DNA from: a virus | Length of the DNA stretch: 5,227 nt | Virus record (IMG/VR): IMGVR_UViG_3300045988_028249 | Location: 1-5,227 of that record | Reading direction: 5' to 3' (one strand) | Part shown: piece by piece, positions 1 through 5,227 of the stretch | Numbering within the stretch: the first letter of the stretch is position 1 | How the letters are laid out: each line of letters begins with the position of its first letter | The notes under the pieces: generated by a model | Seen by the model: the letters and a program-made list of their open reading frames with translations, nothing else | Told to the model about the DNA's origin: nothing | Databases searched by the model: none | Position numbers and translations under genes: made by a program

Positions 1-119
1 AGTTTATCGAAGACCGGCCTCCGATTGATCGTGTGGTTGCTGTGCAGTCTGAACCTCATTTCATTCTTGATGCTTGGTTTAAGTTGCGTTGCGTGCGTCC
101 GATGCCGGTGCGCTCTGTG
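1..119. repeat. Terminal redundancy: nt 1-119 are an exact copy of nt 5109-5227, so the window is a circular 5108-bp genome read past its origin
   Basis: Base-by-base comparison of the first 119 nt with the last 119 nt shows identity (agtttatcgaagaccggcct...cgctctgtg). Confidence 0.95.
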
Positions 120-143
120 CCTGGTCTTGTTGATCATTTCTAA
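1..143 (+). CDS. VP1: 3' end (C-terminal ~47 aa) of major capsid protein VP1, continuing from 3593..5227 across the circular junction; stop TAA at 141-143
   Basis: The frame of the 3593 ORF, carried through the duplicated junction, reads ...QFIEDRPPIDRVVAVQSEPHFILDAWFKLRCVRPMPVRSVPGLVDHF* and ends at TAA 141-143. Total ORF is 1659 nt = 552 aa. Confidence 0.85.
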   Translation, partial: FIEDRPPIDRVVAVQSEPHFILDAWFKLRCVRPMPVRSVPGLVDHF

Positions 144-147
144 GGAG
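142..147 (+). promoter_or_regulatory. Shine-Dalgarno AAGGAG for VP2, overlapping the VP1 stop codon
   Basis: taAGGAGatagcttATG; 7-nt spacing to ATG 155. Confidence 0.7.
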
Positions 148-154
148 ATAGCTT

Positions 155-757
155 ATGTCTGGTTGGGCTGCGCTTGCCAAAGTTGGCGGTGATTTAACGA
201 ACTCAGCGTTAGGTCTCTACGCTTCTTCTAAAGCTTGGCGTCGTCAGCGTGAAGCGGCTCAAAACGCTCATCAATGGGAAGTTGCTGATCTCCGGAAAGC
301 CGGTTTAAATCCGATTCTTTCGGCCACTGGTGGTTCCGGTGCTTCTGCCGGTTCTGCTTCGGTTCCTGCTGGTCTCGGTGTTGATCTTGGTGGTGCTATT
401 AGCACTGCTCAGAATGTGGAGAATTCCAAATATGCTAATCAGTTGAAGAAACAACAGGAAACTTTGGCCGACAAGCAAGGTCAGTTAGTTGATGAACAAA
501 GGAGTACCGAAAAGACTAAGCAACGCGCTAATTTGGAGCAAGGTGCTTTGTTTAGTGCTTTGGCTTCTGCCAAAGAGCTTGAGAACTTCATTCCGTCGTA
601 CTATATCGACGGCTTGCGTCGGAATCCCAAGGATCTTCAGCGCGCTCTTGACCAATATAAATCTAAGGTTGTCAAGGATTCTATTGGTGGCTCGCTTGGT
701 TCAATGAATGCTCTCGGCGCTCTTATTCTCAATTCTGCTAAGAGTTTTTTACAATGA
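155..757 (+). CDS. VP2: Minor capsid / DNA pilot protein VP2 (gokushovirus-type), 200 aa
   Basis: ATG ORF with a strong SD, sited directly after VP1 as in gokushoviruses. Gly/Ala/Ser-rich N-terminal half with a ...DLRKAGLNPIL... motif, which I recall as characteristic of gokushovirus VP2. Codon usage (T-ending codons) matches VP1 and VP4. Confidence 0.8.
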   Translation: MSGWAALAKVGGDLTNSALGLYASSKAWRRQREAAQNAHQWEVADLRKAGLNPILSATGGSGASAGSASVPAGLGVDLGGAISTAQNVENSKYANQLKKQQETLADKQGQLVDEQRSTEKTKQRANLEQGALFSALASAKELENFIPSYYIDGLRRNPKDLQRALDQYKSKVVKDSIGGSLGSMNALGALILNSAKSFLQ

Positions 758-822
758 AAATTCCTTCTGAATGGTGGTGTGTTCTTTTCCTTTTGGTCGT
801 TATAGGAGTTATGTGTTTATGA
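754..822 (+). CDS. Micro-ORF, 22 aa, MKIPSEWWCVLFLLVVIGVMCL: a single hydrophobic helix. Its start overlaps the VP2 stop (ATGA)
   Basis: ATG 754-756 overlaps the VP2 TGA 755-757. Weak SD-like AAGAG 9 nt upstream. 15 of 22 residues are hydrophobic. Confidence 0.3.
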   Translation: MKIPSEWWCVLFLLVVIGVMCL

Positions 823-899
823 ATAAATCCGCTTGGGTCGCTCTTCTCTGCAATATTGCGACTGTCATCGTTAATTTCTTTCAGTCCTACACTTTCTAA
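819..899 (+). CDS. Micro-ORF, 26 aa, MNKSAWVALLCNIATVIVNFFQSYTF: a single hydrophobic helix. Its start overlaps the stop of the previous micro-ORF (ATGA)
   Basis: ATG 819-821 overlaps TGA 820-822. AGGAG at 804-808 lies about 10 nt upstream. N-terminal Lys followed by a hydrophobic stretch of about 18 aa. Confidence 0.35.
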   Translation: MNKSAWVALLCNIATVIVNFFQSYTF

Positions 900-900
900 A

Positions 901-916
901 TGTTTCACGTGAAACA
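901..916. promoter_or_regulatory. Perfect 16-bp palindrome TGTTTCACGTGAAACA (CACGTG core), immediately upstream of the SD of the ORF8-like gene
   Basis: Direct read: tgtttcac / gtgaaaca are exact reverse complements. Located between the TAA at 897-899 and GGAGG at 921-925. Confidence 0.4.
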
Positions 917-930
917 AAATAGGAGGCTAT

Positions 931-1050
931 ATGTCTAAAAAGCGTTCTCGTATGTCCCGTCGCCGCTCGAAGAAGTTGTTTTCTAAAACGGCTCTGCGCA
1001 CGAAGAGTGTGAATACCCGCCCGCCCATGCGCGGAGGTTTCCGTCTCTGA
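931..1050 (+). CDS. Small Arg/Lys-rich protein (39 aa, MSKKRSRMSRRRSKKLFSKTALRTKSVNTRPPMRGGFRL), gokushovirus ORF8-like putative DNA-binding/packaging peptide
   Basis: GGAGG SD 5 nt upstream of the ATG. 15 of 39 residues are basic. The size, composition and C-terminal ...MRGG(F/I)RL resemble gokushovirus ORF8 proteins as I recall them. Confidence 0.6.
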   Translation: MSKKRSRMSRRRSKKLFSKTALRTKSVNTRPPMRGGFRL

Positions 1051-1234
1051 CTGCCTACATCCCTTTTATTGCGCGTAGGCGAAGCCTAAAGCCGCGCCCC
1101 TTGTCGCCAATTCGGAGTCCAATTGTGTTCCAAGGCGCGGCGTAACGCAGCATCTCCTACGTGTTTAATGGATGTACCGCGTAGGGCGCTCTAAGAAGAT
1201 GTCTCACCTAGCGCGCCCCTACTTTCAATACCTA

Positions 1235-1260
1235 TTACCCGCATCGCGGGTTTACTTTTT
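1235..1260 (+). terminator. Candidate rho-independent terminator: stem acccgc/gcgggt with loop atc, followed by TTTACTTTTT
   Basis: GC hairpin (1236-1241 / 1245-1250) followed by a T-rich run 1251-1260. It lies 185 nt downstream of the VP1-VP2-ORF8 gene block. Confidence 0.4.
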
Positions 1261-1408
1261 CCGTGGTAAGCCTCTAAAGAGGCAACTCCCCTTTCGAGCC
1301 AAAAGGGCGGCGTGCCGAAGGCCGCCGGTCGTTGGCGTAGAAAGGATGTCGGCGGTAGTGGCGGAGATCTGAGACCTAAGCCGAGACTGTGTAGGAACTG
1401 CGAGCGGT

Positions 1409-1471
1409 GTCGTAGCGTTACGAAGTCGCGTAGCTTGCGAAGCGAACGAGTAGCGCGTAGACATCGCGAAG
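1409..1471 (+). repeat. Three degenerate direct repeats (~17 bp; consensus approx. CGCGTAGC-TT-(A/G)CGAAG), iteron-like, 80-140 nt upstream of the Rep gene
   Basis: gtcgtagcgttacgaag (1409-1425), tcgcgtagcttgcgaag (1426-1442), gcgtagacatcgcgaag (1455-1471). A related CGCGTAG motif also occurs at 1073-1079 and 1179-1184. Confidence 0.4.
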
Positions 1472-1550
1472 CGTTCCGAAACAGGCTCGTGCGACGGTCG
1501 AAGGTCGCCGCCGCGACAAACCGCCGACCCCCACTACGGAGTGAGATCGT

Positions 1551-2558
1551 ATGACTTGCTACCACCCCATTACGATGTACCGCTTGCGAAGCGGTAAAAA
1601 TCCTGTTACCGGTGCGTGGCCTCTCACATCGTCTCCAAAGTTAGGTTATACGGATAAACCTGTGCAGGTTCCCTGTGGTCAGTGCATTGGCTGTCGTCTT
1701 GAGTATGCTCGCCAGTGGACAGACCGTTGTGAAAAAGAGTTGATGCACCCTTATCTGCCGCTGATTCCTGAACTTGAAAAGGTTCAGGCAGGTGCGAAGG
1801 TACAACAACTCGAGTACAGGAAAGAGAGTTGTTTTCTAACGCTGACTTATGACAATGAACATCTTCCGGACGATAAAGGACTTAATAAGTCAGATTTGCA
1901 AAAGTTTTGGAAACGTTTTCGAAAGGCCCATCCCCTGGTACGTATTCGCTATCTTGCTTGCGGTGAGTATGGCGACCAACTGGGTCGCCCTCACTATCAT
2001 GCTATTGTGTTTGGTTATTCTTTTGATGGAGTAGAACCCTGGTGCAAAAATGAACTCGGTCAATATACCTACGTCTGCAAGGAACTCTCGGAACTTTGGC
2101 CGCTTGGCCTTGCCACGGTGACTAATGATGTCTCCCGTGAGTTGATTGGTTATGTCGCCCGCTACGTCGTTAAGAAGGTCAACGGTGATATGTCGATCGC
2201 TCACTATACCGACCCCGAAACTGGCGTGATCCGCCAAAAGGAATTTCTCGTTATGTCCCGTCGTCCAGGTATCGGTGAAAATTGGATTCGTGAAAACGCA
2301 GCCGAAGTTGTGGCTCACGGTAACACCCTTCTGAGCAATGGCCACCTTGCGCCGTTGCCCAGGTACTTTGAGAATAAGGTTCTTCAGATTGCCGACGAAG
2401 CTACTACTAAGGAACTATTGACAAACAAGGAAAGACGTGCTATAGTGGCACGTAAGAAGGTTGAAGATAACACGCCTGATCGTCTTGGCGACCGTGAGGA
2501 AATCAAGCTCCGACGGGCTTCCCTTCTTTCCCGCAGGTTGGATTCTGCTCTTGCGTGA
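1551..2558 (+). CDS. VP4: Replication initiation protein VP4 (rolling-circle HUH endonuclease, phiX174 gpA-like), 335 aa
   Basis: Motifs read directly: CFLTLTYD (RCR motif 1). HYHAIVF (HUH, nt 1992-2000). GYVARYVVKK with two Tyr 4 residues apart (Y201, Y205; nt 2151-2165), matching the phiX174 A YVAKYVNKK active site. N-terminal CGQCIGC Cys cluster. GGAG SD 9 nt upstream. Confidence 0.95.
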   Translation: MTCYHPITMYRLRSGKNPVTGAWPLTSSPKLGYTDKPVQVPCGQCIGCRLEYARQWTDRCEKELMHPYLPLIPELEKVQAGAKVQQLEYRKESCFLTLTYDNEHLPDDKGLNKSDLQKFWKRFRKAHPLVRIRYLACGEYGDQLGRPHYHAIVFGYSFDGVEPWCKNELGQYTYVCKELSELWPLGLATVTNDVSRELIGYVARYVVKKVNGDMSIAHYTDPETGVIRQKEFLVMSRRPGIGENWIRENAAEVVAHGNTLLSNGHLAPLPRYFENKVLQIADEATTKELLTNKERRAIVARKKVEDNTPDRLGDREEIKLRRASLLSRRLDSALA

Positions 2559-2598
2559 ATTCGACGTTACTACTATTATGTTGAATGAGGTTTGAATC

Positions 2599-2877
2599 AT
2601 GATTCTCGTTTCTGTCTATGACAAAAAGGCTCAGACGTTTTCTCAGCCCTTTTGCGCGATCAACGAACAGGTTGCAATTCGTCAGTTTGGCGACGCGGTG
2701 CGCGACACTAATACGGCGATTTGTGCGCATCCTGAAGACTATCAGCTGTTCAACGTTGGTGTTTTTGATGAGTCCCACGGCGTTTGCATTCCTGCTGACC
2801 GTTGCACTGACGGTCTTCACCTTGCTCCCGTTCATCTCATTGATGCCATCTCCTTAGTGCCGCCCGTGCAGGCCTAG
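2599..2877 (+). CDS. VP5: VP5-like small non-structural protein (92 aa) of gokushoviruses
   Basis: Positioned directly after VP4. N-terminal ...VYDKKAQTFSQPFCAINEQVAIRQFGDAVRD...HPEDYQLFNVGVFDESHG resembles the conserved VP5/ORF5 pattern (F-x-V-x-D-x-K-A-x-x-F...PF...N-x-G-x-A-x-R-x-F...PED-x-L...G-x-FD) as I recall it. GAGG SD upstream. Confidence 0.7.
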   Translation: MILVSVYDKKAQTFSQPFCAINEQVAIRQFGDAVRDTNTAICAHPEDYQLFNVGVFDESHGVCIPADRCTDGLHLAPVHLIDAISLVPPVQA

Positions 2878-2915
2878 CCCTCTCGCCGGGCGGTTGGTCT
2901 TCTAGTCTTTTTCAA

Positions 2916-2937
2916 CCCGCCGCCCGGCGGGTTTTTT
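2916..2937 (+). terminator. Rho-independent terminator: cccgcc-gccc-ggcggg followed by TTTTTT
   Basis: Perfect 6-bp GC stem (2916-2921 / 2926-2931), 4-nt loop, T6 at 2932-2937. Lies between VP5 and VP3. Confidence 0.6.
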
Positions 2938-2963
2938 CAACATAATTTTTGGAGTTATGTTCA

Positions 2964-3449
2964 ATGTGTATGTTTCGTACCCGCTACGCGAAGGACGTTA
3001 AAGCGCCTTCCCACGGTATCGAGTTCGTACAGCCCTCTCAGGCTATCCAGTCGGAAAAGGAAGGTACGACGATTGATTACTACCTGCGTAAATACGCTTC
3101 TACTGGCATTCTTGGTGATCCTGAATCCGCGATGAACATGCAGTTTGGTGACTTCACGGATGCCCCTGATTTTGAGACTGCCCAAAACCGTGTCGTTCAG
3201 GCGTCGATGTATTTCGACAATTTGCCCGCGAAACTCCGCGAACGCTTCGGAAACGACGTTCGCGAAATGATGGCATTCCTCTCGAAGGAGGAAAACCATG
3301 AAGAAGCCGTCAAACTCGGTCTGCTTGAGGCTCTGCCTGAAGCTCCTACACCTTTACCCGAAGTCGAGCCCGTACACCCGATTACGGATGTTCAGAACCC
3401 TGCTAAGGAACCGTCTAGCGTTCCCGCCGAACCTAAACAGGAGGTTTAG
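2964..3449 (+). CDS. VP3: Internal scaffolding protein VP3 (161 aa from ATG 2964; the six-frame ORF extends to a TTG at 2949)
   Basis: Conserved core ...AMNMQFGDFTDAPDFETAQNRVVQASMYFDNLPAKLRERFGNDVREMMAFL..., typical of gokushovirus VP3 (QNR...LPA.LR.RFGND). Acidic/Pro-rich C-terminal tail. GGAG at 2951-2954 gives 9-nt spacing to ATG 2964. ATG 2970 is an alternative start. Confidence 0.85.
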   Translation: MCMFRTRYAKDVKAPSHGIEFVQPSQAIQSEKEGTTIDYYLRKYASTGILGDPESAMNMQFGDFTDAPDFETAQNRVVQASMYFDNLPAKLRERFGNDVREMMAFLSKEENHEEAVKLGLLEALPEAPTPLPEVEPVHPITDVQNPAKEPSSVPAEPKQEV

Positions 3450-3451
3450 AG

Positions 3452-3511
3452 ATGTTTCGCAAATCTCGCCGTCGTAACCGCCGCGGTCGCCGCGGCAAAA
3501 CCCGTCGCTAA
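3452..3511 (+). CDS. Tiny Arg-rich peptide (19 aa, MFRKSRRRNRRGRRGKTRR), a positional analogue of phiX174 J (immediately upstream of the major capsid gene)
   Basis: Strong SD AGGAGG (3439-3444) 7 nt upstream. Begins 2 nt after the VP3 stop. 12 of 19 residues are Arg/Lys. Located directly before VP1. Confidence 0.5.
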   Translation: MFRKSRRRNRRGRRGKTRR

Positions 3512-3530
3512 GACGGTTTTCCACCCCGTC

Positions 3531-3561
3531 CGCACAGTCTATTACTTGTTGTAACTGTGCG
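3531..3561 (+). promoter_or_regulatory. Intergenic hairpin (8-bp stem cgcacagt / actgtgcg, 15-nt loop) between the 19-aa ORF and VP1
   Basis: Exact inverted repeat 3531-3538 / 3554-3561, read directly. Confidence 0.3.
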
Positions 3562-3592
3562 CACTGACACCAAAACTTTTGGATGCAAAAAA

Positions 3593-5227
3593 ATGAGCAA
3601 AACTTCTGCCCGCCCTTTTGGAACTTCCAACTCCCTTTTCTCTCAGATTCCGCGTGCTGAGATTCAGCGCTCTGCTTTCGATCGTTCTCATGGTTATAAG
3701 ACTACGTTCAATGAAGGTCTGTTGATTCCCTTCTTTGTGGACGAAGTCCTTCCTGGAGATACTTTTTCGCTCTCTTGGGCGGCTATTTGCCGTCTCACGA
3801 CCCCGATTGTTCCTTTCATGGATTCGATCTATCTGAAAGCTTATTGGTTCTTCGTTCCTAATCGTTTGGTCTGGAATAATTGGCAGCGCTTTATGGGTGA
3901 ACAGGAAAATCCCACTGATTCGACCGATTTCCTCGTCCCTTCTTTTAATACTACTGGCTCTGGCGCTACTTATGGCACGCTCTGCGACTACTTCGGCATC
4001 CGCACGGGTGTTAAAGGTATTAAGAATATTAATGCGCTCCCCTTCCGCGCCTACTTTAAGATTTGGAATGACTGGTTCCGCGATGAAAACTTACAGGATT
4101 CTCAAGGCGAATGGAATCAGACAACGAACCCTCAGCATTACACTGATCCGATTGGCGATGCTTCGATTGATTACACCTTGACGATGCCTTTGCGTCGGAA
4201 TAAGTTTCACGACTATTTCACGAGTTCTCTGCCTTGGCCTCAGAAAGGCGACCCCGTACAGATTTCGCTCGGTTCGTCTGTTCCTTTGTCTATTTCTAAC
4301 ACTCTTGCTGTTACTGGTAATGGTTCGCCGACTTTTACTAGTCCTTATGGTATTTCTGCGGCTGATGCTGTTAAGGCTTCTTCTAATAAGCCTACTACTT
4401 TGTACTTTGCCTCCTCGGGTAATGTTGCATCTTGGTCGAATCCTGCTCTTACTCTTTCTGGGTCTATTACTGGCACAGCCGATCTTTCTCAGGCTCAGCC
4501 GATCACCATCAATGACTTGCGCCAGGCTTTTCAGATTCAGAAGTTGAAGGAACGTGACGCCCGTGGCGGTACTCGTTATACTGAAATTTTGCGTGCGCAC
4601 TTTGGTGTCGTATCCCCTGACGGTCGTCTTCAGCGTTCGGAATTTCTTGGTTCCTCGACCTCTCAGATTTATGTCTCCGAGATTGCTCAGACGTCTGCCT
4701 CTGACTCGACTACCCCACAAGGCAACTTGGCTGCCTATGCCGTCGGCCGTGACCGCAAATTCGGTTTTACGAAGTCCTTTGTGGAGCATGGCTTCATCAT
4801 CGGCCTCATCACGGCTACTACGGACTTGACCTATCAGCAAGGCGTCAACCGTATGTGGAACCGTCGTGACAAGTACGACTACTATTGGCCTGCCCTTGCT
4901 CATCTTGGTGAACAGGCAACTCTTAACAAAGAGATTTTTGCCCAAGGCACTGCTGACGATGACAAGGTGTTCGGTTATCAGGAACGTTGGGCTGAGTATC
5001 GTTATTATCCGTCGATGATTACCGGTAAGTTGCGCTCTGATGACGCTCAGACGCTTGACATGTGGCACTTGTCTCAGCGCTTCGAGAACCTGCCCACGTT
5101 GTCCAGTCAGTTTATCGAAGACCGGCCTCCGATTGATCGTGTGGTTGCTGTGCAGTCTGAACCTCATTTCATTCTTGATGCTTGGTTTAAGTTGCGTTGC
5201 GTGCGTCCGATGCCGGTGCGCTCTGTG
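3593..5227 (+). CDS. VP1: Major capsid protein VP1 (gokushovirus-type). This is the 5' 1635 nt; the ORF continues across the circular junction to nt 143 (552 aa in total)
   Basis: Translation MSKTSARPFGTSNSLFSQIPRAEIQRSAFDRSHGYKTTFNEGLLIPFFVDEVLPGDTFSLSW...TPIVPFMDSIYLKAYWFFVPNRLVWNNWQRFMGEQ...ALPFRAYFKIWNDWFRDENLQ... carries the hallmark N-terminal motifs of Microviridae major capsid proteins. The frame has no stop before the window end. The six-frame track omits it only because it runs off the window. Confidence 0.97.
   Translation, partial: MSKTSARPFGTSNSLFSQIPRAEIQRSAFDRSHGYKTTFNEGLLIPFFVDEVLPGDTFSLSWAAICRLTTPIVPFMDSIYLKAYWFFVPNRLVWNNWQRFMGEQENPTDSTDFLVPSFNTTGSGATYGTLCDYFGIRTGVKGIKNINALPFRAYFKIWNDWFRDENLQDSQGEWNQTTNPQHYTDPIGDASIDYTLTMPLRRNKFHDYFTSSLPWPQKGDPVQISLGSSVPLSISNTLAVTGNGSPTFTSPYGISAADAVKASSNKPTTLYFASSGNVASWSNPALTLSGSITGTADLSQAQPITINDLRQAFQIQKLKERDARGGTRYTEILRAHFGVVSPDGRLQRSEFLGSSTSQIYVSEIAQTSASDSTTPQGNLAAYAVGRDRKFGFTKSFVEHGFIIGLITATTDLTYQQGVNRMWNRRDKYDYYWPALAHLGEQATLNKEIFAQGTADDDKVFGYQERWAEYRYYPSMITGKLRSDDAQTLDMWHLSQRFENLPTLSSQFIEDRPPIDRVVAVQSEPHFILDAWFKLRCVRPMPVRSV
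5109..5227. repeat. Second copy of the terminal redundancy (equals nt 1-119)
   Basis: Exact identity with nt 1-119. Confidence 0.95.

Follow-up and report, generated by a model that had tools for sequence, protein, structure and literature searches.

The locus between VP2 and VP8

In this study, we focus on two very small genes that lie in tandem between the VP2 and VP8 genes of a gut gokushovirus, gene A (open reading frame 22, ORF-22) and gene B (ORF-26), and consider their coding status, distribution and possible roles. The DNA analysed is IMG/VR virus record IMGVR_UViG_3300045988_028249, positions 1 to 5,227, and this whole stretch of 5,227 nucleotides (nt) is referred to as the window. 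Bases 1-119 are repeated at 5109-5227, and this 119-nt terminal redundancy identifies the window as a circular gokushovirus genome of 5108 nt, opened inside the 3′ end of VP1, with all its genes on the + strand.

The upstream gene, recognised as VP2 by an earlier note made from the sequence alone, encodes the DNA pilot protein (155..757, + strand) and indeed matches PHROG pilot-protein and minor-tail families with expectation values (E) down to 3e-27. Its stop codon (TGA, 755-757) overlaps the start codon of gene A (ATG, 754-756) in the tetranucleotide ATGA, and the stop codon of gene A (820-822) overlaps the start codon of gene B (819-821) in the same way. Gene A (754..822; MKIPSEWWCVLFLLVVIGVMCL) encodes a fast-evolving hydrophobic micro-protein, predicted to be single-pass and assigned below to type 1, and gene B (819..899; MNKSAWVALLCNIATVIVNFFQSYTF) encodes a conserved amphipathic-helix micro-protein of the B1 family, preceded by an AGGAG Shine-Dalgarno sequence that lies inside gene A (804..808), 10 nt before the gene B ATG. 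Both peptides, the chain of ATGA overlaps and this AGGAG are exactly as the earlier note had described them. A 31-nt spacer follows, which contains a perfect palindrome (GTTTCACGTGAAAC, 902..915) and, as read from the sequence, the AGGAGG Shine-Dalgarno sequence of VP8 (921..926). The VP1-VP2-A-B-VP8 block ends with the gene for a basic, VP8-like DNA-binding protein of 39 amino acids (aa) (931..1050, + strand; phrog_10695, E = 9.6e-13).

Hydrophobic micro-ORFs are by themselves insignificant here, because the T-rich coding strand makes off-frame ORFs hydrophobic: the window contains 76 ORFs of at least 20 aa, and many of the off-frame ones, including those inside VP1 and VP2, are equally hydrophobic. 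The question was therefore settled by comparing relatives, which were gathered through VP2, that is, independently of the micro-ORFs. GenBank phages include no close DNA-level match to the window. Searching through VP2 gave one close genome in IMG/VR (L001, the same as L004) and, in metagenomes, L084-L088 (clade 1, VP1 88-92% identical) plus L089, whose VP2 as query led to seven more genomes (L098-L104; clade 2, VP1 about 59% identical), and gut microviruses in GenBank were reached by tblastn with VP2 and with a clade-2 gene B sequence. A degenerate pattern of the gene B C-terminus had one true match in a genome collection, a Sutterella-labelled contig carrying an integrated relative (L097, discussed below); a second match (L096, an Oscillospiraceae metagenome-assembled genome) was rejected as a chance hit inside an unrelated 271-aa gene, and the exact DNA word of gene A had no match in IMG/VR. 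No close relative found via VP2 has lost either ORF, and this conservation, together with the overlapping start and stop codons, agrees with the proposal of the earlier note that both are real genes with coupling signals in the structural (late) block.

Gene B: a conserved amphipathic micro-protein

The sequence of gene B is nearly constant across clade 1: all seven genomes (7/7) encode MNK[SP]AW[VI]ALLCNIATVIVNFFQSYTF, and the prophage copy shows one further change. At the DNA level, 14 of the 17 variable columns in these seven genomes fall on codon position 3, three on position 1 and none on position 2 (binomial P = 4.7e-5), and the pooled ratio of non-synonymous to synonymous polymorphism (pN/pS) in clade 1 is 0.047, versus 1.8 and 2.8 in the other two frames. 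Judged by this codon-position pattern, gene B is a real gene under strong purifying selection. Two alternative ORFs were rejected. A 42-aa version that starts at ATG 771 has an extension that is not conserved, as L001 and L085 start at the ATG of the 26-aa form, and the 59-aa antisense ORF (738-917, minus strand) takes the substitutions on its first codon positions, with a protein that is not conserved.

Clade 2 carries a 30-aa homologue at the same place (MALHENDWW[AT]LLVH..DT.V.FFK..), with a pN/pS of 0.31 outside its overlap with gene A and 0.085 inside it. Homologues also occur in Dulem virus 149, in MG945721 and in the pig-gut microviruses MG945727, MG945810 and MG945895, and remain recognisable at 58-60% VP1 identity; the Dulem virus 149 copy is annotated as a ‘hypothetical protein’, and the others whose annotation was examined are unannotated. 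We define these peptides as the B1 family (W-x-x-L-[LIV]..[VA]-[DET]-[TSV]-[IAV]-[VI]-x-[FWY]-F-[KQR]), in which W6, L9 and F21 are near-invariant and to which the gene B of the window belongs, being alignable, placed between VP2/A and VP8, and under purifying selection. A hidden Markov model (HMM) of B1 scores all members at E 1e-11 to 1e-16, with these members included in its construction. The third-position bias of peptides at the B position was found again in three other lineages.

The earlier note had assigned to each of the two peptides a helix of about 18 hydrophobic residues, long enough to span a membrane. For gene B this assignment needs correction. On an approximate Hessa scale, with correspondingly approximate insertion energies, the gene B peptide of the window is borderline, at about +1.2 kcal/mol, and it is the most hydrophobic member of its family, the others having apparent insertion energies of +5.7 to +9.5 kcal/mol and hydrophobic moments of 0.46-0.55. 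Its hydrophobic moment is 0.41 (z 2.1 against shuffled sequences), the family range being 0.41-0.57 (z 2-3), and the polar residues N12, T15, N19, Q22 and S23 lie along one helical face. Members outside the clade of the window carry mid-helix charges (D/E17 and K/R24), in whose stead the window has T15 and Q22, and net charge across the family spans -4 to +3, many members being strongly acidic (-3 or -4). By these computed properties, the gene B family is an amphipathic, often charged helix and not a classic transmembrane segment.

Gene A: a fast-evolving hydrophobic micro-protein

The interval from the VP2 stop to the gene B start is invariably filled by a single ORF, whose sequence differs by type. 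Type 1 comprises the window, L084 and the prophage L097 (22 aa, two substitutions), type 2 comprises L001 and L085 (31 aa, MENISIWHWIILLGLGAIVFLIWSILKIFKK), and type 3 comprises L086-L088 (23 aa, MTFGKFLFWFLLAYFICSVLGLI), while clade 2, KT264806 and Dulem virus 149 encode A peptides of 31-39 aa with the WHW motif of type 2. From these we define a WHW-type A family, encoded directly after VP2, in which x-x-x-[ST]-x-W-H-W at the N-terminus is followed by a hydrophobic helix and then by a basic tail; a tblastn search of GenBank phages with WHW-type A returned chance matches only. Type 1 of the window has only M1, S5, W7, L13 and V19 in common with type 2 and lacks the basic tail. It matches the WHW-type HMM at E 5e-8, a model that includes it, and it agrees with the family in position and composition; homology of types 1 and 3 with WHW-type A is no more than plausible.

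Within types, changes in gene A are few and mostly non-synonymous, yet conservative. Residue-level purifying selection on gene A is slight (clade-2 pN/pS about 0.5). An alternative reading is that A and B are spurious ORFs in a hypervariable non-coding VP2-VP8 spacer. T-rich DNA readily yields hydrophobic ORFs, the A interval would be open by chance with a probability of 0.10-0.40 per lineage, and the pN/pS of A is barely different from that of other frames. For B, however, a spurious origin is excluded by the codon-position pattern in four independent lineages, and for A four lines of evidence oppose it. First, gene A is open in six of six contexts (four sequence types and two further WHW-type lineages), for which the joint chance is about 4e-5, the six contexts being not fully independent. 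Second, the WHW motif survives at 58-60% VP1 identity. Third, Shine-Dalgarno sequences (AGGAGG, GGAGG or AGGTGA) precede A in types 2, 3 and clade 2, that of type 1 in the window being weak. Fourth, A and B overlap by 37 nt in clade 2, and the third positions of B vary at 2/12 sites inside the overlap versus 11/17 outside it (Fisher one-sided P = 0.013); third positions of B that are nearly frozen in the overlap imply that the A frame is also constrained, as dual coding predicts. A spurious origin of the pair is hence very improbable, and on this comparative evidence gene A is a real but fast-evolving gene.

As for physical class, the best 17-residue window of gene A ranges from about -0.7 kcal/mol in type 1 to -3.7 kcal/mol in type 2 on the same approximate scale, with a Kyte-Doolittle mean of 2.4-3.0, and all types have one stretch of negative or near-zero insertion energy with a low hydrophobic moment. 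For ORF-22, the membrane-spanning helix of the earlier note is upheld as a prediction, with the qualification that in type 1 the hydrophobic residues number only about 16 (W7-L22), and a basic C-terminal tail is present on the A peptides of type 2, clade 2, KT264806 and Dulem virus 149. A single-pass membrane peptide is a credible prediction for gene A from these values. In every lineage, start-stop links (ATGA, TAATG, TAAATG or the 37-nt overlap) chain VP2 to A and B, and often on to VP8. What is established for the two genes is their coding status and conservation, their order, their signals for translational coupling and their physico-chemical class.

Distribution of the A-B cassette in gokushoviruses

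The cassette is lineage-specific. The A and B HMMs, together with a check for a transmembrane micro-ORF after VP2, found none in the other 79 of 80 VP1-related IMG/VR genomes, gokushoviruses with 49-56% VP1 identity. VP8 follows VP2 directly, with no cassette, both in KT264826, which has the nearest VP1 in GenBank, and in Escherichia coli phage EC6098, and the matches to seven E. coli prophages leave no room for an insert between VP2 and VP8; the tractable E. coli model thus lacks the cassette. On the 79 genomes, KT264826 and EC6098, the idea that the cassette is a general gokushovirus feature was rejected.

A B-position peptide without A occurs in at least nine GenBank genomes, usually coupled to the VP8 gene. 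Five gut gokushoviruses in GenBank, L115-L119 (MG945528, MG945711, MN379642, KT264829 and KX513869), have a single cationic amphipathic micro-ORF in the slot; these peptides (B2; MIDTIVKF..AIWEAFKAVKK and relatives) vary at third positions in 9/9 and 10/12 columns. Homology of B2 with the gene B of the window is unsupported, with an hhalign probability of 12.7% over 11 columns, and the two have only position and amphipathic character in common. Taking L115-L119 together with L112-L114 (MG945727, MG945895 and MG945810), eight deposited gut gokushoviruses contain an unannotated amphipathic micro-ORF of 28-36 aa between VP2 and VP8, with ATGA or GTGA coupling and variation that is nearly all third-position; at least two families are represented, an acidic one and an antimicrobial-peptide-like cationic one with a net charge of about +5. 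In the clade-2 genome L104 (3572-3885), only the 23 hydrophobic residues of A remain, and the place of B is taken by a larger, hydrophilic and unrelated ORF (MAHIKVEFTQLQEAEKNF...) that extends beyond the end of the locus; the slot after VP2 therefore exchanges cargo.

In the lineages studied, the VP2-VP8 stretch, usually treated as a spacer, is by these comparisons coding, and throughout one group of gut gokushoviruses it encodes one or two micro-proteins maintained by selection. Neither the A nor the B family has an entry in Pfam, PHROGs or the PDB, and both are mostly unannotated in GenBank. In Pfam and PHROG, no family, known lysis families included, was matched at E <= 0.01 by any A or B variant, and the PDB search gave no A-like or B-like relative. 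A large protein database, queried with the 42-aa extended form of ORF-26, returned a single protein (P0001). Gene callers commonly skip ORFs shorter than about 30 aa, with which this single entry is consistent, and the two genes have been missed by PHROGs, Pfam and most of the GenBank records examined.

Ties to the pilot protein and to VP8

The type of gene A co-varies with the type of the C-terminal half of VP2, and the VP2 C-terminus of clade 2 resembles that of type 2 and pairs with a WHW-type A. This co-variation could reflect a functional tie between A and VP2, or merely their linkage in one recombination module. A functional tie would suit a role of the two peptides as cofactors of morphogenesis or genome delivery, with B as a partner of VP8, the capsid or a scaffold in packaging and A as a membrane anchor or cofactor of VP2 or, at the extreme, as a C-terminal extension of VP2 produced by readthrough or -1 frameshifting. 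We consider this explanation unlikely, although several observations fit it.

In every cassette-bearing genome, a B-position micro-ORF stands directly upstream of VP8, often ATGA-coupled to it, and the at least nine GenBank genomes with such a micro-ORF and no A point in the same direction. The strongly acidic B members (net -3 or -4) lie beside a very basic VP8, but the spread of net charge in the family, from -4 to +3, argues against a simple charge-neutralising partner, and EC6098 has no B gene. The VP8-like protein itself, which has the C-terminal MRGG(F/I)RL of EC6098 VP8, gives a single PDB match, weak but over the full length, to chain E of 8DES (‘Putative DNA binding protein’, E = 0.45), a small DNA-binding protein of solved structure. 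No B-like PDB chain was found. On the side of A, the pairing of its type with the VP2 C-terminal type holds even across clades, but is explicable by simple linkage.

Fusion of A to VP2 is formally possible by two routes. In types 2, 3 and clade 2, A lies in the VP2 frame just past the VP2 stop, which would allow readthrough, and in the window a canonical -1 slippery heptamer (T_TTT_TTA, 745-751) stands in the VP2 frame three codons before the stop, where a slip enters the A frame and would fuse VP2 to the ORF-22 peptide. However, L084 and L097, the type-1 relatives nearest to the window, read TTTTTCA in place of the heptamer, and frameshift fusion is kept as a minor rival only. The frame relation between VP2 and A is also not conserved (ATGA, TAATG or in-frame), and A has its own ATG, with a strong Shine-Dalgarno sequence in three of the four close-clade forms (types 2, 3 and clade 2) and a weak one in type 1 of the window.

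An integrated relative and a dif-like site

The 10,957-nt contig UQUM01000054.1 (L097), labelled ‘uncultured Sutterella sp. UMGS655’, contains an integrated relative whose A and B are intact. The order is VP2-A-B-VP8-spacer-Rep, followed by genes for xanthine/uracil permease, PhdYeFM, Fic, QueF and others; the phage part ends just past Rep at ...ACTACTATTATGTTGAAT, after which come 8 kb of bacterial genes with a guanine-cytosine (GC) content of 55.5%. Identity between the window and L097 stops exactly after GACGTTACTACTATTATGTTGAAT (window 2565-2592; L097 2176-2210), and in the window this dif-like sequence, at about 2565-2592, lies between the VP4 stop (2558) and the VP5 start (2599). The last 11 nt of GACGTTACTACTATTATGTTGAAT differ by one base from what we take to be the XerD arm of E. 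coli dif. These features suggest that the phage is probably temperate via XerCD/dif, in a Gram-negative host outside Enterobacteria, of which Sutterella is the probable one; through the label of the contig with the dif-integrated copy, it is a candidate host for experiments. A second XerD-arm-like 11-mer occurs at 2955-2965, and clade 2 carries both sites.

Temperate growth raises another possible role, superinfection exclusion or carrier-state immunity, in which a membrane peptide matched to its own VP2 type would block DNA entry of incoming relatives in lysogens or carrier cells. The integrated relative retains A and B intact at a site that the window also has, the type of A tracks the type of the VP2 C-terminus, as a pilot-protein-specific lock would require, and A diversifies quickly, in an arms-race-like manner. 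Gokushovirus carriage is known to confer superinfection immunity by an unknown mechanism (PMC7062461), but EC6098 shows such immunity without any A or B gene. Furthermore, A and B sit in the late structural block and not in a separately expressed unit, and no XerD-arm-like motif accompanies the A and/or B genes of KT264806, Dulem virus 149 and MG945721. Exclusion is thus quite improbable as the function of the cassette. The broader proposal that the cassette is tied to lysogeny was rejected, since lineages without the dif-like motif carry it too.

The palindrome GTTTCACGTGAAAC sits in the 31-nt insert between gene B and VP8, an insert that is absent from L001 and L084. The same 14-mer was found in 12 of 121 fetched loci, far above chance and in cassette-bearing lineages only, at three different sites: before VP8 in clade 1, in the 3′ part of Rep in clade 2, and in the stem of a terminator-like hairpin after VP8 in KT264806 and MG945721. 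It may serve as a protein-binding site or represent a mobile hairpin.

Comparison with known small phage and bacterial proteins

The phiX174 E protein, the MraY inhibitor of Bullavirinae, has its activity in one N-terminal transmembrane helix and is a low-level product of the late region. Like gene A, it is a small microvirus protein from a genome without an endolysin, and the approximate hydrophobicity of its helix is similar to that of A. Unlike A, which is 22-39 aa long and not overprinted, E has 91 aa, is overprinted in gene D, and depends on the host protein SlyD and on a conserved proline; there is no sequence similarity, and the present locus encodes two peptides, not one.

Single-gene lysis proteins (Sgls) of single-stranded RNA (ssRNA) phages offer a second comparison. 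They include LysM, a 37-residue MurJ inhibitor (PMC12506998), and de novo evolved proteins that are tiny, usually have one transmembrane domain (TMD) after a Shine-Dalgarno sequence, belong to no common family and turn over rapidly (PMC7693330). As with Sgls, which differ between close relatives, gene A has three types in one clade. The differences are that Sgl genes belong to RNA phages, are mostly embedded in other genes and have been shown to be toxic or lytic, whereas A and B are non-overlapping genes of a single-stranded DNA (ssDNA) phage known from sequence; at 22 aa, the A peptide of the window also lies below the 25-codon cut-off of the ssRNA-phage screen. Membership of A and B in the single-gene lysis proteins cannot be claimed, and E and the ssRNA-phage Sgls would be their nearest functional analogues.

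Holin/antiholin (pinholin) pairs also consist of two adjacent, co-translated, small membrane-active proteins, and the A peptides of clade 2 and type 2 have a holin-like layout, with a transmembrane helix and a basic C-terminal tail. Known holins, however, exceed these peptides several-fold in size and have one to four transmembrane domains, and B is not an N-terminally extended isoform of A. A holin-endolysin cassette was excluded, the neighbours being VP2 and VP8 and the genome containing no endolysin.

Three further systems resemble the cassette in size and architecture only. The phiX174 K protein (56 aa) is a small, hydrophobic, non-essential protein that is said to raise burst size and whose gene overlaps genes A and C of that phage; like A and B, which related viable phages lack, it is a small, dispensable accessory, but its sequence is not similar to theirs. 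Type I toxin and Hol-Tox peptides (TisB, Hok and Ibs) are single helices of 19-50 aa, chromosomal or plasmid-encoded and controlled by antisense RNA, that damage the inner membrane; they match A in size and composition, unlike which they do not lie in a phage structural operon. Filamentous-phage g7 and g9 encode hydrophobic, translationally coupled virion-tip proteins of 32-33 aa in phages that are extruded through the membrane. They too form a start/stop overlap chain of very small hydrophobic proteins in an ssDNA phage, whereas microviruses assemble icosahedral capsids in the cytoplasm.

Possible role at the host envelope

Gokushoviruses are the dominant microviruses of gut and aquatic viromes; to our knowledge, no E-like gene is known in the group and only some genomes carry a peptidase. 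In the 5.1-kb genome, Pfam and PHROG searches found no peptidase, lysozyme or endolysin domain, and the coding-strand ORFs of at least 90 aa are VP1-VP5 only. The literature likewise reports no known lysis gene for gokushoviruses (PMC7062461), in agreement with the earlier note.

Our preferred reading, which we put forward tentatively as quite possible but short of probable, is that A and B act on the host envelope late in infection, either by causing lysis or by tuning its timing or efficiency. Both would be translated by coupling to VP2 and to each other within the late VP1-VP2-A-B-VP8 block. A would insert into the inner membrane of the host as a single-pass peptide that diversifies rapidly, its N-terminal boundary being rich in Trp and most of its types ending in a basic tail, while B would be a conserved amphipathic helix of 26-30 residues that binds the membrane interface or a partner helix such as A. 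Together they would serve this lineage as a functional stand-in for the missing phiX174 E-type gene. In this scheme, we infer the membrane location, the timing of expression and the envelope or lysis role. A narrower version, which appears rather unlikely, makes A a minimal (22-39 aa) single-gene lysis protein and B a timer or antiholin-like regulator, or a second membrane-disrupting effector, in a translationally coupled two-peptide cassette born in the VP2-VP8 spacer and swapping types with the pilot-protein C-terminus; if true, it would provide the first lysis effector identified in Gokushovirinae.

An envelope or lysis role is plausible because the genome has no other recognisable lysis gene, and because the two genes belong to the late block, at a locus where other microviruses keep lysis genes: lysis-associated accessory genes of other microvirus families occupy the same VP1-to-VP4 interval (PMC9239249). 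The fast, type-switching and clade-restricted evolution of gene A is counted for lysis, as it mirrors that of the ssRNA-phage Sgl genes, which are non-conserved between relatives (PMC7693330). The prophage copy with intact A and B in the Sutterella-labelled contig, which makes a Gram-negative host probable, is counted for an envelope or lysis role.

Several points weigh on the other side. Neither A nor B has homology to any lysis protein in Pfam, PHROG or the PDB, and gene A shows little residue-level purifying selection (clade-2 pN/pS about 0.5). The cassette is dispensable, since KT264826 and EC6098 lack A and B, and EC6098 nevertheless lyses E. coli (PMC7062461). A transmembrane micro-ORF predicts lysis poorly: of the 293 micro-ORF candidates in the ssRNA-phage screen, only 33 (about 11%) were toxic to E. 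coli, and a predicted TMD was present in 178 candidates without effect (PMC7693330). Most B members are charged and tightly coupled to VP8, for which packaging or assembly fits at least equally well, and the association of A with VP2 fits a role in packaging or delivery too.

A rival candidate for the lysis gene is present in the genome itself. Overprinted in Rep lies an ORF of exactly 61 aa (MTMNIFRTIKDLISQICKSFGNVFERPIPWYVFAILLAVSMATNWVALTIMLLCLVILLME, 1849-2034, + strand) that contains two hydrophobic stretches and is open in five of five clade-1 genomes. Lysis might then depend on a gene elsewhere, such as this one, with A and B as non-essential fitness modulators like phiX174 K, an arrangement that we judge distinctly improbable. 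phiX174 E is itself overprinted, synonymous variation in Rep is lowest at the 5′ end of the 61-aa ORF (pS 0.09 at 1836-1895), and A and B are dispensable in related phages. However, there is no sign of purifying selection on the 61-aa frame (pN/pS 0.86), no Shine-Dalgarno sequence precedes it, clade 2 lacks it but retains A and B, and T-rich off-frames are generically hydrophobic in this genome. The ORF may be an E-like overprinted gene or a by-product of T-rich coding.

A and B provide testable candidates for gokushovirus lysis from a supposed spacer and are short enough for direct synthesis and testing. Should either peptide prove lytic, it would represent a new minimal “protein antibiotic” that points to a new target; otherwise, the two would still be unrecognised conserved components of a packaging or delivery module. 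The finding overturns nothing, and concerns a two-gene, non-overprinted module of small, putatively membrane-active accessory proteins in Gokushovirinae.

Other features of the genome

The large ORFs of the genome are assigned to VP1, VP2, VP3, VP4, VP5 and VP8. The major capsid gene VP1 runs from 3593 and wraps to 143 (+ strand; Pfam Phage_F, 3e-179), VP4/Rep occupies 1551-2558 (+ strand; REP_ORF2-G2P), and VP5 (2599-2877) and VP3 (about 2964-3449), both on the + strand, were assigned by library family matches. GC content reaches its genome minimum in the A-B cassette (0.38 versus 0.50 overall). No convincing promoter was found for the cassette, the single 9-of-12 match (726-755) being no better than in shuffled sequence. 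A terminator-like hairpin with a T-run (1237..1261, + strand), 190 nt beyond VP8, is a consensus match only and might mark the end of the late transcript.

That hairpin lies within a GC-rich spacer of 500 nt between VP8 and VP4/Rep (1051-1550), which has 58% GC (genome 50%), takes up about 10% of a very compact genome and has no Rfam match. Folded as ssDNA, it reaches -116 kcal/mol (z = -5.2). Its first approximately 180 nt are kept in all clade-1 relatives, with two compensatory pair changes, and its 3′ part of approximately 300 nt is swapped for other GC-rich sequence in L084 and L097; clade 2 also has a GC-rich spacer at the same place. The spacer could be a complementary-strand origin or some other structured element. 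An Rfam scan of the window gave only a chance, sub-threshold match of 20 bits to anti-hemB, probably caused by the hairpin at 2880-2940. This hairpin, directly 3′ of VP5, is strong, GC-rich and followed by a T-run (cccgccgcccggcggg tttttt), with the look of an intrinsic terminator.

Finally, a very basic 19-aa micro-ORF (MFRKSRRRNRRGRRGKTRR, 3452-3511) starts 3 nt past the VP3 stop with GGAGG upstream and is kept in L004, L084, L085 and L087. Together with the VP8-like protein, it may mean that the genome encodes two J/VP8-like DNA-condensing peptides.

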